The translations under genes and the position numbers were made by a program. From Escherichia coli (GTDB lineage: Bacteria > Pseudomonadota > Gammaproteobacteria > Enterobacterales > Enterobacteriaceae), in assembly GCF_044647545.1 (NCBI RefSeq), contig NZ_CP172818.1: a stretch of 64,000 nt of DNA; one strand, written 5' to 3'. Below, in pieces: positions 3,923-32,180 of the stretch; position 1 is the first letter of the stretch, and every line of letters begins with the position of its first letter. A model generated the notes under the pieces. The model saw only the letters and a program-made list of their open reading frames with translations, was not told the origin of the DNA and made no database searches.

Positions 3923-4111
3923 CAAAAGCAATTTCTCCGGGATTCTGTATACAAAAACGCCGTAAAGTTTGAGCGAAGTCAATAAACTCCCTACCTATTC
4001 AGGGCAATATCTCTCTCGCAGGTGAATGCAACGTCAAGCGATGGGCGTTGCGCTCCATATTGTCTTACTTCCTTTTTTGAATTACTGCATAGCACAATTG
4101 ATTCGTACGAC

Positions 4112-4139
4112 GCCGACTTTGATGAGTCGGCTTTTTTTT
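4112..4139 (+). terminator. Rho-independent terminator-like hairpin with T-run
   Basis: gccgactttgatgagtcggc followed by tttttttt. Confidence 0.5.
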
Positions 4140-6837: not shown

Positions 6838-6888
6838 TATTTCAGTTCTCTGGTACTAAATGGGGCAAATTGGGGGCAAACTTTGCAA

Positions 6889-8119
6889 CTACGATAACCG
6901 CGCATTCAACATGGCTATCTGTTCGTCGTTCATGTCATCAATCCACATACCGTAAATTTCATACACCATCTGCGCAGTTTCATGCCCCATTTGGCTGGCT
7001 ATAAATGCCGGGTTCGCTCCTGCCGTCAACAGCCAGCAGGCAAAAGTATGCCGCGTATGGTACGGATTACGGCGGCGAATACCAGCACGTTTTACTGCTG
7101 CATTCCACCTTGCCCCCAAACTGCTTACCGAGTAATAAGGTTTTTGTTTTCCGTTACACACCCTGGGCATGAAAACAAAATGCAGTTTTTGCTTTTCGGT
7201 TCTGCATACTGCCGATAATAAAAGGTGACGACTTTTGCGATGATGCCCGGTCAGTTTGTATTGCTCCTTCAGTGCTTCAAGAGCAGGCTGCAGTAGTGTT
7301 ACTGTTCGGATCCCGGCATTTGTTTTTGGGGGACCGAACATATCGAGCCCTCGTCAGGTTTCTTCTGACATTCACTATTCCCTTTTCGAGATCCACATCC
7401 TCCCACGCCAGAGCTGCCAGTTCCCCGTGACGAAGTCCTGAGTAAACGGCAAAGTTCCACAAGTTCTCGCTATCTCCTTTTTCACTTTCCATTAATGCAT
7501 TGAATTCTGTTTTAGATAACGGATCAGGCTTTATTCTGTTCGCTGTAATTTTTTTACTCCTTCAAATGGTTTGGTTGATATAAATCCGACTGATACGCAA
7601 AACGCAACAGCGAACAGAGCAAGGCAATATCGTATCAACTGTGCGCACGGTTCTTCCTTTTTTGTTGGATCTTGGATTATCCAGGTAAAGCGTTTCTCCA
7701 TGCAGCAGTTCATTCCGGTAGTTTAAGATATCGCTATAACGAATATGTGATATCGGGGTACTTTCACAAATTATTATTCTGAGTGTTTTTAATTGTGATT
7801 TCGTTTTCTTCATTGTGTTTGTTGTTAACTCTGTCTCTTTAATTTTTGTCCAGATATCACAAAGCTCTCCGAACGTTTTTATGACTCTCGTTGTCACCAT
7901 TTTTGCCCCAGTGCTGGACTGGGGAAAACGTCTTAAATACTCAAATTCACCGGAGTTTATTTCATGAACTATCAGCGCTCTTAAATTTCCGGCCTTTTTA
8001 ATATTACTGTTTGTAATCTCCCAGCCTTTTAATGTTTCCCGACATCGTTTTCCTCGAAACATGAACCAGATGCGAATGTATCTACCTCTAATCTCGACAC
8101 CTGTTGGTAATTTAGACAT
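6889..8119 (-). pseudogene. intR: Tyrosine integrase, frame-disrupted in this sequence
   Basis: Integrase-like translation split over ORFs 6889..7341, 7277..7492, 7531..7713 and 7562..8119 in different frames. Confidence 0.75.
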
Positions 8120-8120
8120 A

Positions 8121-8336
8121 TCATGAGTCTTTGATAAACTGATTTATCTTTGGATAGTTGTACCAGATAATCCCTCGTTTGCTGTCTGGCTTACCTAAAG
8201 GAGATACTCGTTTGAAGTGGAAGCCCTCCACCCAACAGTTCTGGCGGTATGCTTCAATTTGTCTGGCCCCCAGACCAGTGCGAAGCATCAGGCCGTATTC
8301 AACCATCCACTCTTCATTAAAGATTACTTGTGCCAT
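8121..8336 (-). CDS. xisR: Excisionase-like protein
   Basis: 71-aa ORF ([10 protein letters not shown]...) immediately upstream of integrase, overlapping arrangement. Confidence 0.8.
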
Positions 8337-8414
8337 CGCATCACCTCTGGCAGGCGCCAATGTTAGACTGAAATTGACGCCCGATGTTGATTATTAATAA
8401 TCAGCTATGAAGTT

Positions 8415-8624
8415 TTAATTTGAATACAATGCAATTCTCGAGGACTGAAGTTTCTCGCAATTAAAATTTATCAGTTTTACTTTCTGCTCTCTGGAAACGC
8501 CTGCTTCTTTTTTACCTGAGAGCATTTTTTCGCATTCTGATTTCGTTAGTTTAGATTTTGAATATCTTGTCCAGTTAGTAGGAGTGCCACCTTCCTTTTC
8601 AATAGTGGCGGTAATTTTATACAT
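8415..8624 (-). CDS. ydaC: Rac prophage small protein YdaC
   Basis: ORF 8415..8696; likely start at internal ATG (MYKITATIEKEGG). Confidence 0.65.
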   Translation of the reverse strand: MYKITATIEKEGGTPTNWTRYSKSKLTKSECEKMLSGKKEAGVSREQKVKLINFNCEKLQSSRIALYSN

Positions 8625-8811
8625 GAACACCTCCATTATTATTTCCAGTGGTTCGTTTATTCCATCTTTCGAGTGCTTCTTTTTCACTTCCACCATAACC
8701 GGTTCGGGATTCGCATCCGTTACACTTCGCTCGGTAATATCCTGAAATGGCTTTCACCGTTACTGATGGACAACCACAAAATGGACATGGTTTAACATTG
8801 TCATATCTCAT
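8617..8811 (-). CDS. ralR: Restriction alleviation protein / type I toxin RalR
   Basis: 64-aa Cys-rich product (MRYDNVKPCPFCGCPS...CNGCES) within ORF 8617..8850. Confidence 0.85.
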   Translation of the reverse strand: MRYDNVKPCPFCGCPSVTVKAISGYYRAKCNGCESRTGYGGSEKEALERWNKRTTGNNNGGVHV

Positions 8812-8867
8812 AATTTTTCTCATAAAAAATATTTCAAGTTGGCGGTGCATTACACCGCCAGGCTGAA

Positions 8868-9677
8868 TTATTCCTCTGAATTATCGATTACACTGTATTC
8901 CCCGGTTAATACAGAGGAATCTGCAGGATCGATTGTCAGTGGTTCCTTTTCATCCATTGATACTGCACGCTGGATCTCAATTGATACGGGCAAATATTTG
9001 AACAGGCGACGAATAGCCGTTTTCTTTGCCATTTCTTCCCAGTGAGTTACCCACGGCCCGTTATTACCAGCTTTACTCAGGCTGCGCACCAGCTCAATCT
9101 GTTTGCGCGTCATAACTTCAAACTGAGTACCTCCGTCTTTCAGTCTTGCGACAGCATAGACGTGGGTAACCGGGGCATCTTCGTTTTCTCCCGGGCGGTG
9201 TATTAACTTTTCATCAAGGCCAAATTCGAAGCTAAACTCGTCACCTTCACGGACAACACGGGCTGACAGGCTGGCGATTTGACCAGAACGGCGAGCCAGA
9301 TCAATCATGCCGCGATAGCCAATGATTAGCTGAACGTTCTTTTTACCGCTCTTTTCGTTTTTATTACCAAAAGGCAGTAAATATGCATGACCGAGGGCGC
9401 TACCTGGCTCAAGTCCGAGCTGTGAACACTGTACGATCGCACTGACAAAACTCATAGTGTCACAGTTTCCTAACGCCGGAACTTTACGAATTTCTGTGGT
9501 GGCGATACGGATCATACGTTCAGCCGTCATATGGCGTGGAAGAGCTGCTGCCAGTTGCTCTTTCATTGATGGCTGGTTAATAAAACTAATCACGTCGCTA
9601 TTTTTAACTGCTGCTGGTGCACGGTTTCCCTGAGTTTTTTGCAGATCGGCTTTTGCGATTGGTGGTTGCTTAGTCAT
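8868..9677 (-). CDS. recT: Recombinase RecT (single-strand annealing protein)
   Basis: ORF 8868..9734; recalled RecT N-terminus [12 protein letters not shown] at internal ATG. Confidence 0.9.
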
Positions 9678-12312
9678 TTGCATATTCCTTAGCCCAGCGG
9701 GGCAGTGATAATGTCTTAATAGCTGGCCATTCATCGGTATTCAGGCAGTCAGACAGGGTTCGCAGATTGCGGTGATATTCCTGTTGACCTGCCAGTTTTG
9801 CTTCTTCGCCCATCATGAAAATTTCAACCGGATAACGTCCGCATTCAATAGTTGTGCTGGCAACCAGAAAAACGAAAGTTGGCTGCACTCCAAACTGTGC
9901 TTCATAACCGTCACTGTAGAATGCATCCTGAACGTGATAGCGGTAGTCGTAATAAGCGGTTTTGAATCGTTGAATATCCGCCGTAGTTTTCACGTCCATG
10001 ATCCAGTGAAATTCAGGGATAATTTTGTCCGGACGGCACCGACACAAAATTCCTGTTTCAGGATCTTCCCAGTAAATTGATGATTCAGCGTGTCCGGCGC
10101 TTTCAACAAGCCATTGCCCCAGCGGCAAAGCCATAACGCTTTGATACATGAGTTCAATTTTCCGGCCTTCTTCCGCAGTGATAACCGTTTTTCCTGTGCT
10201 TGCGCATTCCATCAGAAACGCTTTCTCTTCTTCTTTTCCGGCGTTTGTACGGCGGTTAAATTCAGGTGCTACGATAAAGCGGTTACTGAATTCTTCCGGT
10301 TCAAGTACCCGGCAGTGGAAAGCAGTTCCTAAATCGAGCGTTTTTGTCTTTGTGGTGTCCACGGGGGCATTTTTACGCCACAAATATAGTGCCGGAGTAT
10401 CAGCAATGTCATCGAGCTGAGACTTACTGATACCGGGACCCGCGTGGTAATTCTCATTCGAAATTCCGTAATAAATACCTGGCTCTATGTCTTCTACGAT
10501 TAAGGGATCTGACGCCTCGCCAGTTTCACTATCGCTGGCATGATGCTGATTGCTGCCAGTGTTCTCCTTGTGCTGATGCGCAGTGCCTTCCATTTCCTCC
10601 AGATCATTTTTCTGAACTTCAGGCTGATTCTCTCCATCGAATATTTCCTGGTATGTTGCGTCACCCATCACCGCACCACAATCAGGGCAGTTGCCGCCAC
10701 CGCTCTGACCGCAGGCGGTGCAGATCTTTTCCGGTTCCTGTTGCACTACTGGTTCAGGTTGTTTCGTTTCTGGCTCGTTTTGTTGCGTATTTGGGCTGTT
10801 TTGTTCCGCTTTCTGGTCGTTCTGTTCCGTTTCTTGCTGGTTCTGGTTCACAGAATCGCGGGTCTGGATCCCCTTAATCCATTTCGGATCATTCGGGTCG
10901 CTAATCCCTTCAACAAATTCACCACGTGATACTGCAAGCAGTTCATCGTCATCGACAGGATTTTTTGATGGAATGTTTTTCCGGGCTTCATGGAGTTCTG
11001 CCCGCAGTTCCTGATATTTCGCATCAACAGAATTTACCTGTGACTGAGCATCCAGCGGCTGCGTGTCCTGATGATGTTCAGTTGCGTCCGGTTCCATTGT
11101 TTCAGCCTCTCCCTGTTCAACTGCCGTTGTTCCAGATGGTTGCGGTTTTTCTTCATCATCCTGTTTTCCTTCTTCTGTTACTCGCTGCGGCATCGGGGCA
11201 GAGGAGCGACCGCAGGCAATATCCACGATTTCCGGATCAGGGTTGGCATGATCGGTTTCAGTCAGTACTTTGTTCAGATATTCAGTGACGTGCGCGGGGA
11301 TGACCTCGATCCCAATTGGTGCTTCTTTTACGGACGCAACCACGATGGCGCGGGAATAATCCAGCCCGCCAGGCATGGTGATGAATTTGTCGCGGAAAAC
11401 AGAAAAGGGCGGTTTATTTTCAGCGATAATTTCCTCAATGCGTTTAGCGTGTGCCGGATGAAGGTTATAGATGTCCAGATCCATTGAACGGGCCAGTACG
11501 CCAGTGGCTACGTCGCGCGCCAGTGACGTCAGATCGTGTACGAAACCTTCGCCGCGATCGGTGAGGTTTCCGCCGCCAGCATTAGCACCGGAAGCCGTGC
11601 GAGTGATGTGTGAAACACGATTACCCTTCATCCACTCTTTTGTCAGCAGTCCTCGATCGGTGTAGTCAGCGTTCAGGTATGCTTCGAAAAAAGCAGTTAT
11701 CAGTCCCAGGTTTGAATTACCAGGATTAGGGAAAACTTTGTCAGTGTCACGAACCAGTTTGTGGAGTTCGCGAATTTCCAGCGGGTCGAGCAGGCTGGTT
11801 TTGTGGGAAACAGCCAGGGCAGTAACAGCCGGTAGTTCTTCAGCCCGAGCAATGTGTAATGCCTGGAGTCCGTCGCGTGAAACGTGCGTTACCGGTTTTT
11901 CGCTGCCGTGTTGAGCAAGCCAACGAATGGGCAGTTCCTGGCCAGAAATTGGGAGTAGCATATTCTCCTCAATCTCAGTCATGTCTTCGCCGTTGACGTT
12001 GGTATTGCCTTGATAGTGAGCGTTGTCTGGTGCTGCTCCCGGTTTTAGTTCCCATGTCATGGAGTCTTTGCTGAGTTGATAGCGTTCACTCCAGGTAAAA
12101 TCGATCTCACCTTCAGCGGGCAGGTCATTAACGACAGGAAAATTCGTGGCAACAGCTTTAAAATAGCTGCTCAGTTTTTTACCTGACTTAACGATCAGGT
12201 AGTCCAGAGTGGCACAGGTCGATTCAAAATCGTTGCTTGCCCACAGGACGACGTCAGGTTCACCGGATGATTTTTTCGCTTTCCGTAACAGGAAGAGTGG
12301 TTTTGTGCTCAT
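9670..12312 (-). CDS. recE: Exonuclease VIII RecE
   Basis: 880-aa ORF ending ...[11 protein letters not shown]; low-complexity acidic/Gln-rich middle region; overlaps recT start. Confidence 0.9.
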
Positions 12313-27340: not shown

Positions 27341-27915
27341 TGGCATTCAGAATGAGTGAACAATCACGTACCGTAAAAATTTATAACCTGCTGGCCGGAA
27401 CTAATGAGTTTATTGGTGAAGGTGACGCATATATTCCACCTCATACAGGGCTGCCAGCTAATTCTACAGATATCGCCCCACCGGAAATTCCTGCTGGCTT
27501 TGTGGCAGTTTTTAACAGTGAAAATGAATCGTGGAATATTGTTGAAGACCATCGTGGTAAAACGGTCTATGACGTGGCGTCGGGGGACGCATTGTTTATT
27601 TCTGAACTCGGACCGCTACCAGAGAATGTCACCTGGTTGTCGCCAGCAGGGGAGTATCAGAAGTGGGACGGCGTATCCTGGGTGAATGATGAGGAAGCAG
27701 AAAAACTGTTTCGGATACGGGAAGCGGAAGAAAGAAAAAGCAACCTGATGCAGGTAGCCAGTGAGCATATTGCGCCGCTTCAGGATGCTGCAGATCTGGA
27801 AATTGCAACGGAGGAAGAAACCCCGTTGCTGGAAGCATGGAAAAAGTATCGGGTATTGCTGAACCGTGTTGATACGTCAACTGCACAGGATATTGAATGG
27901 CCAGCACTGCCGTAG
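27340..27915 (+). CDS. tfaR: Tail fiber assembly protein
   Basis: 191-aa ORF start-overlapping stfR stop; Tfa-like. Confidence 0.85.
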
Positions 27916-31820: not shown

Positions 31821-32047
31821 TGAATAAATCCTTTAGTTATTTTATTTGCCTTTTATCCCCATTTCGGGGAGTGAAAACATCCTAAAGGAGAAGTTCAGTT
31901 AGCCGATAAATATCATTTGTTACGCCTTAAGTAAAACCTTAATCAAATAATTCTACGGAAATGATAATAAGTTTGGTGAATATATTGTTGGCGACATATA
32001 CAAAATAAAAATTATACATTTAAATAGTGATGCGTTATTCTTCGCGG

Positions 32048-32152
32048 GTTATATGCCTTTATTGTCACAAAGATTATTTTCTGTTGGACCCTTGTTACTG
32101 TTTATCCAACAAATAATGAGACAAGCCCGAACAGTCGTCCGGGCTTTTTTTT
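32048..32152 (+). ncRNA. micC: MicC-like small regulatory RNA
   Basis: 5' gttatatgcctttattgtcaca matches recalled MicC seed; ends in hairpin cccgaacagtcgtccggg + T-run (32125..32150). Confidence 0.7.
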
Positions 32153-32180
32153 AGAATTGGATAATCCTTATCCAGAGCAT

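Follow-up and report, generated by a model that had tools for sequence, protein, structure and literature searches.

A K-12-type RalR/RalA module of the Escherichia coli prophage Rac: placement of the antitoxin RNA and distribution of its pairing with ralR

We identify the interval 8415-8860, with high confidence, as the type I toxin-antitoxin module RalR/RalA of Rac, a cryptic lambdoid prophage, present here in its K-12 sequence. The window, i.e. the whole stretch of DNA analysed, is 64 kb long, and all positions refer to it. The antitoxin RNA, which the first-pass annotation had called not locatable from the sequence alone, is placed at 8440-8618 on the plus strand by a covariance-model match to Rfam RF02694 and because the K-12 locus, where ralA is annotated, has the same sequence. 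The present analysis directly supports the genes, this match, the complementarity between the two RNAs and the identity to K-12. For toxicity, DNase activity, compensatory rescue, the Hfq requirement and the 5' end of RalA we rely on published work on the same sequence in K-12. The locus is already known, being the described RalR/RalA pair of the E. coli Rac prophage, and nothing in it is novel. The identification is secure; the lineage caveats described below qualify the need for RalA in nature and leave the identity of the locus unchanged.

The ralR locus and its toxin

An inspection of the sequence together with the listing of its open reading frames (ORFs) gave a run of minus-strand genes over 7900-9400:

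~8121-8336, minus: xisR (ORF listing)
8415-8624, minus: rcbA/ydaC coding sequence, 69 aa, DUF1187; annotated rcbA in K-12, formerly ydaC
8617-8811, minus: ralR coding sequence, 64 aa plus stop (ORF listing, profile matches, K-12 annotation)
8868-9677, minus: recT (ORF listing)
from 9670, minus: recE (ORF listing)

The ORF of rcbA/ydaC lies downstream of ralR and overlaps it by 8 nt. The interval 8415-8860, which the first-pass annotation had given for ralR, does contain ralR and RalA but is wider than ralR alone, as it takes in rcbA/ydaC, ralR and most of the recT-ralR spacer. BLAST against E. coli K-12 MG1655 found no difference over 7634-10384, a segment that covers ralR, rcbA/ydaC, RalA, recT and xisR; this makes the module the Rac allele of K-12. 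The present locus agrees with the RalR/RalA system described in K-12 (Guo 2014, PMC4041452; RF02694) in sequence, gene order, RalA offset and 16-nt pairing, the module showing no differences, whereas the host surroundings differ. BLAST gave 17 SNPs in ttcA relative to K-12 and an intR broken by 7 small indels, and the host is thus not K-12.

The 64-aa product of ralR, MRYDNVKPCPFCGCPSVTVKAISGYYRAKCNGCESRTGYGGSEKEALERWNKRTTGNNNGGVHV, is a Cys-rich protein of the Lar family with cysteines at C9, C12, C14, C30 and C33. Three profiles score above their cut-offs on it: the NCBIfam equivalog NF007260 ('type I toxin-antitoxin system endodeoxyribonuclease toxin RalR'; 166 bits, cut-off 113), Pfam PF14354 (Lar_restr_allev; 53.5 bits, cut-off 28.6, 2.9e-14) and TIGR03655 (55.3 bits, cut-off 39.6). 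The gene is annotated as ralR in K-12 (b1348). The ORF at 8617-8811 and the NF007260 match thus bear out the first-pass reading of ralR as a gene for a small Cys-rich DNase-type toxin, in agreement with the published work (Guo 2014, PMC4041452). RalR of identical K-12 sequence was reported to be toxic and to cleave DNA (Guo 2014, PMC4041452), and the zinc-ribbon-like Lar-family protein would act as a non-specific DNase when over-produced. RalR takes its name from restriction alleviation and, like the Lar/Ral restriction-alleviation proteins (PF14354, TIGR03655), matches both models; its identity to lambda Ral is only 24% (Guo 2014, PMC4041452). Some alleles inactivate the toxin through ralR W50* (8662 C>T), which several IMG/VR contigs carry.

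The antitoxin RNA and its pairing with ralR

The elements of the antitoxin RNA and of its target are as follows:

8425-8430, plus: TACAAT, a -10-like hexamer and candidate promoter element, read from the sequence and missed by the consensus scan
8440-8618, plus: RalA sRNA, 179 nt (Rfam RF02694), antisense to rcbA/ydaC, with its final 2 nt over the ralR stop codon
8441-8478, plus: predicted RalA 5' stem-loop (Rfam consensus structure, MFE fold)
8502-8517, plus: RalA pairing region, nt 63-78, TGCTTCTTTTTTACCT (complementarity; mutational evidence in Guo 2014, PMC4041452)
8502-8512, plus: perfect pairing core of 11 nt (complementarity to the ralR mRNA)
8585-8618, plus: predicted RalA terminator (Rfam consensus structure, MFE fold, Guo 2014, PMC4041452)
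8674-8689, minus: target site in the ralR mRNA, AAGUGAAAAAGAAGCA, CDS nt 123-138, codons 41-46, S-E-K-E-A

An Rfam scan of the whole 64-kb window at gathering thresholds matched RF02694, RalA ('RalR antitoxin'), at 225.1 bits against a gathering score of 170 (E = 1e-53) and over model positions 1-179 of 179. NC_000913.3 annotates the ncRNA ralA (b4714) at 1413556-1413734, starting 25 nt inside rcbA and ending 1 nt beyond the start of the ralR stop codon, and 8440-8618 has the same offset. The earlier statement that the toxin is neutralised by a small RNA, RalA, encoded nearby agrees with Guo 2014 (PMC4041452). As for the places where the RNA had been thought to lie, the ralR-ydaC overlap was well chosen, since the 3' end of RalA at 8618 reaches it, but the flanking non-coding DNA was not, as RalA is wholly antisense to the rcbA/ydaC coding sequence. 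The RNA is missing from a protein-only track because PGAP-annotated RefSeq records list proteins only. The impact on annotation is small: this is the textbook RalR/RalA pair, and the sole gap is a protein-only track that hides an annotated sRNA.

The 5' end of RalA, GAGGACTGAAGT, was mapped by primer extension, using RNA from a plasmid whose insert began at the ralR start and ended at the ydaC stop (Guo 2014, PMC4041452). A 5' end with GAGGACTGAAGT is reported to coincide with a primary transcription start site in dRNA-seq data, and the abundance of RalA is described as very low (PMC7967276). An independent RNA-seq study detected RalA in 8 of 8 conditions. A consensus scan for sigma-70-like promoters gave none at a suitable distance from 8440. 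TACAAT at 8425-8430 ends 10 nt upstream of the RalA 5' end, is not accompanied by a convincing -35, and reads TATAAT (8427 C>T) in four variant alleles; it is the best candidate element of the putative RalA promoter, and no more than a candidate. A plus-strand TTGACG-16-AATAAT at 8374-8401, considered as the RalA promoter, would start transcription ~30 nt upstream of the mapped 5' end and was not adopted because that end has independent dRNA-seq support.

The 3' end of RalA was originally placed from a predicted hairpin (Guo 2014, PMC4041452), and we likewise infer both the end and the terminator. The predicted terminator has a 6-bp stem (8585-8590 with 8605-8610) and a 14-nt loop, followed by GUAAUUUU with four U. 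A consensus scan found no intrinsic terminator in 8250-8950 and so missed the predicted RalA terminator; in some natural variants 4 of the 6 stem pairs are broken, with no compensation. Two pairs of the predicted 5' stem-loop are broken in 3 of 17 variants, with no covariation. The MFE fold of RalA agrees with the consensus structure from Rfam, yet its stability does not exceed that of shuffles (-35.5 versus -34.6 kcal/mol, z = -0.26), and when the Rfam structure was applied to 17 distinct RalA variants, no pair was changed on both sides, at a mean column identity of 98%. The RalA structure is therefore a single-sequence prediction, which the available variation neither supports nor refutes.

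The 16-nt complementarity to the ralR mRNA that the first-pass annotation had suggested looking for is present, between 8502-8517 and 8674-8689. The plus strand reads TGCTTCTTTTTCACTT at 8674-8689, inside ralR, and since ralR is transcribed from the opposite strand its mRNA is complementary to RalA. The duplex comprises 14 Watson-Crick pairs, 1 G:U pair and 1 mismatch and includes the 11-nt perfect core, and its RalA side corresponds to the pairing region placed 62 nt downstream of the RalA 5' end by Guo 2014 (PMC4041452). At up to 2 mismatches, the 16-mer has 2 matches in the whole 64-kb window (8502-8517 and 8674-8689), against 0.07 expected. An unrestricted RNAduplex run of RalA against ralR returned one long, loop-ridden duplex that was uninformative on the 16-mer, and pairing was scored by the longest perfect complement and by ungapped 16-mer scoring. 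The longest complement between RalA and ralR is the 11-nt run, a length reached in 1.7% of dinucleotide shuffles of RalA. This core is the codon string AAA-GAA-GCA (K-E-A), read in the same frame in ralR and in rcbA/ydaC. From sequence alone, the pairing is suggestive, not compelling.

All functional evidence on RalA and ralR comes from one study, with plasmid over-expression (Guo 2014, PMC4041452). In that work ydaC DNA neutralised RalR even when the ydaC start codon was changed to ACG or a stop was placed at codon 9, and RalA supplied in trans from pBAD rescued cells from RalR. Four mutations in the RalA 16-mer abolished rescue and matching ralR mutations restored it. Deletion of hfq also abolished rescue, and Hfq bound RalA in vitro. 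In the presence of RalA the RalR protein dropped whereas the ralR mRNA did not, which points to a block of translation. Deletion of ydaC led to more double-strand breaks, an effect attributed to loss of RalA and activation of RalR (Guo 2014, PMC4041452). We found no RIL-seq, CLASH or Term-seq evidence on RalA in the literature.

The proposed mechanism is as follows. RalA would be a 179-nt Hfq-dependent sRNA, made convergently to ralR from the strand opposite rcbA/ydaC; its nt 63-78 would pair with ralR codons 41-46 and block translation of ralR, giving less RalR protein at an unchanged ralR mRNA level. Hfq-assisted pairing of these two segments is the best-supported account of how RalR synthesis is lowered, because the compensatory-mutation experiment used this exact sequence.

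A site inside the coding region, together with Hfq dependence, is unusual for type I systems (Wen and Fozo 2014). RalA resembles the antitoxins of TisB/IstR-1, ShoB/OhsC and ZorO/OrzO in being a separately transcribed sRNA with a short pairing of 16-21 nt in place of a long overlap in cis (Guo 2014, PMC4041452). It differs from those systems in that it pairs inside the toxin coding region and not in the 5' UTR, needs Hfq and is antisense to a second, conserved protein gene, and in that its toxin RalR is soluble and a DNase instead of being a small membrane peptide (Wen and Fozo 2014). SymE/SymR is likewise a type I system whose toxin is a nuclease and not a membrane peptide; SymR, however, is a genuine cis-antisense RNA that covers the 5' end of symE, and SymE is a reported ribonuclease (Wen and Fozo 2014), whereas RalR cleaves DNA. 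With its annotated ends, RalA covers only 2 nt of the ralR coding sequence (8617-8618), its long overlap being with rcbA/ydaC. An antitoxin gene overlapping the toxin gene, as in Hok/Sok-like and Ibs/Sib-like cis-antisense pairs, is thus not what these ends give, and RalA would belong there only if ralR and rcbA were co-transcribed.

Variation across genomes and alternative accounts of RalA

The 481-nt region of the module is present in 1,922 of 5,426 complete E. coli genomes. We gathered 39 distinct variants (91-100% identity) from E. coli genomes and IMG/VR contigs, and seven Citrobacter-type loci whose RalR is 67-75% identical. A scan of genome contigs with RalR gave 5 loci only and a first scan of viral contigs gave 80 near-identical Rac copies; useful diversity was obtained by drawing on a spread listing of E. 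coli genomes and by scanning with the Citrobacter YdaC as seed.

The variants speak for the protein encoded by rcbA/ydaC. Its product matches Pfam PF06688 (DUF1187) at 131.7 bits against a cut-off of 20.7 (1.2e-38). Variable sites in the ydaC frame fall on codon positions 1/2/3 as 8/4/23 (third position, 23 of 35; chi-square p = 1.8e-4), and dN/dS is 0.04-0.20 across lineages, with synonymous sites near saturation (pS 0.6-0.9). By these sequence measures rcbA/ydaC is a real protein-coding gene, contrary to the conclusion of the original paper (Guo 2014). Roughly half of the distinct variants have 8438 T>A, which turns rcbA codon 63 into TGA and leaves a 62-aa protein; this position sits 2 nt upstream of the RalA 5' end. 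DUF1187 (RcbA-like) genes of 62-64% identity also occur in Klebsiella-type and other prophages that have no Lar/RalR neighbour, where one has a Dam-like methyltransferase gene upstream and another an unrelated 64-aa ORF outside the Lar family. As these genes lack a RalR neighbour and still lie near recT, xis and int, DUF1187 is taken to be an independent conserved prophage gene.

In the E. coli lineage, the 11-nt core shows almost no variation. The ralR-side substitutions in the duplex, 8674 T>C and 8681 T>C, each convert an A-U pair to G:U, and the pairing is therefore kept. On the RalA side, 8514 and 8517 vary without compensation, and one variant carries T63C, a change that reduced antitoxin activity (Guo 2014, PMC4041452). 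Third-codon positions are variable at 3 of 6 in the RalA 16-mer, versus 23 of 60 across ydaC; at these positions in the E. coli variants, no constraint on the 16-mer beyond the protein code was detectable.

The pairing was found only in the E. coli Rac lineage when compared with the seven Citrobacter-type loci. There the ralR-ydaC synteny is kept and the homologous sites (e.g. AAGCATGAGGCT and AAAGCGTCAGCC) are not complementary, the longest complement being 7-8 nt against a shuffle mean of 8. The RalA covariance model scores these loci at 29-35 bits only, with many non-standard pairs. Moreover, a natural 12-nt in-frame deletion, 8498-8509, removes 8 of the 16 pairing nucleotides, hits the core and changes KKEAGV of rcbA/ydaC to KI. 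It occurs in 17 complete E. coli genomes, from mouse, human, cat and rodent isolates, and the four carriers checked all encode a RalR identical to that of K-12 (WP_001317028.1). These natural alleles, which lack the pairing core and carry a K-12-identical RalR, are a ready-made test of the need for RalA at native expression. We consider the comparative results, namely the coding nature of rcbA/ydaC, the confinement of the pairing to one lineage and the core-less natural alleles, to be of modest interest to specialists.

Because the pairing is restricted to one lineage and can be lost without loss of ralR, two other readings stay alive, both at low probability. One is that RalA acts mainly as a cis-antisense RNA on a native ralR-rcbA mRNA, the 16-nt trans pairing being secondary. 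Given co-transcription of ralR and rcbA, which we infer, RalA would match the 3' part of the toxin transcript as a perfect antisense of 179 nt, and the long duplex would lead to RNase III cleavage or to control of rcbA; readthrough of the weak RalA terminator would add complementarity to ralR itself. The sequence carries the 8-nt ralR-rcbA overlap (ATGTATAA), and a consensus scan found no terminator-like site between the two genes or after rcbA. RalA itself lies entirely opposite rcbA and reaches the ralR stop codon, its terminator is weak and not conserved, and the Citrobacter-type loci keep the ralR-ydaC synteny without the 16-nt pairing. Wen and Fozo (2014) also raised an RNA interaction via overlapping 3' ends as a possibility, end mapping then being lacking. 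The published experiments argue otherwise: RalA in trans neutralised RalR made from a plasmid with ralR only and no ydaC region, rescue returned with compensatory changes in the two 16-mers alone, and extra RalA did not lower the ralR mRNA, unlike what cleavage of a long duplex by RNase III predicts (Guo 2014, PMC4041452). We therefore regard a mainly cis-antisense action as decidedly improbable.

The other reading takes the trans pairing as a young, lineage-specific coincidence of shared K-E-A codons (AAA GAA GCA) that is relevant only under over-expression. Prophage repression would then be what mainly silences ralR, RcbA (DUF1187) would be the conserved element, and RalA a low-level antisense by-product. 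Experiments speak directly for a working pairing (compensatory rescue, the Hfq requirement), and deletion of ydaC is reported to raise double-strand breaks (Guo 2014, PMC4041452); we accordingly think a coincidence unlikely, even with several observations on its side. The 11-nt core is an identical codon string in the same frame of both genes, and complementarity of this length is only modestly unlikely by chance, given the 1.7% of shuffles that reach it. The more distant ralR-ydaC loci lack the pairing, and its core is deleted in the 17 complete genomes, with RalR as in K-12 in 4 of 4 carriers checked. Strong purifying selection acts on ydaC (dN/dS 0.04-0.20, saturated synonymous sites), DUF1187 genes occur where RalR is no neighbour, and RalA is of very low abundance (PMC7967276). 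A broader form, in which the pairing is a recent Rac-lineage accident of the shared AAAAAGAAGCA (K-E-A) and is dispensable natively, RcbA has the conserved function and the native role of RalA is cis-antisense, is doubtful but deserves some weight; if the accident were true, natural alleles without 8 of the 16 pairing nucleotides would be neutral.

We rejected the YdaC protein as the antitoxin, since it is largely refuted by the published start- and stop-codon mutants (Guo 2014, PMC4041452). With the start changed to ACG or a stop at codon 9 ydaC kept its antitoxin activity, and an RNA-only pBAD-ralA construct rescued (Guo 2014, PMC4041452); DUF1187 genes also adjoin unrelated upstream genes. 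The two-gene operon arrangement with overlapping ORFs, and the standing of ydaC as a real, conserved protein-coding gene, would suit a type II-like pair, which we nevertheless find scarcely credible. Hfq-assisted pairing of RalA with ralR remains our preferred account.

Other features in the window

A very stable hairpin (-25.8 kcal/mol, z = -5.6) lies on the minus strand at 8819-8880, between the recT stop and the ralR ATG. Its core, GGCGGUG-UAAUG-CACCGCC, is kept in most variants examined, and its 3' arm passes a U-rich stretch to just upstream of the ralR start. The predicted hairpin may terminate or attenuate recT transcription, or may mask the ribosome-binding site of ralR. A match to mir-67 at 8818-8882 (17.8 bits versus 53) was rejected as a chance match on this hairpin. 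Directly upstream of the hairpin, a consensus scan gave a minus-strand promoter-like TTAACC-18-GATAAT at 8909-8880. A 14-nt inverted repeat (8422-8435 with 8887-8900, 86% complementary) brackets the ralR-rcbA module, one arm over the candidate RalA -10 and the other between the two hexamers of the promoter-like site that precedes ralR; it may be due to chance.

Compared with K-12, the Rac integrase gene intR (6885-8119, minus) is broken up into three ORFs (185, 71 and 150 aa) by its 7 small indels together with clustered SNPs, the differences spanning 7205-7633. Among complete E. coli genomes covering the full query, the best match to 6880-7700 is ~97.4%. The interruption is either a private pseudogene or a local sequence error.

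Four other Rfam families were matched above their gathering scores in the window:

545-640, minus: McaS (Rfam)
4018-4135, plus: FnrS (Rfam)
27683-27881, plus: IS009 (Rfam)
32045-32160, plus: MicC (Rfam)

A protein-only track would likewise hide these sRNA genes.
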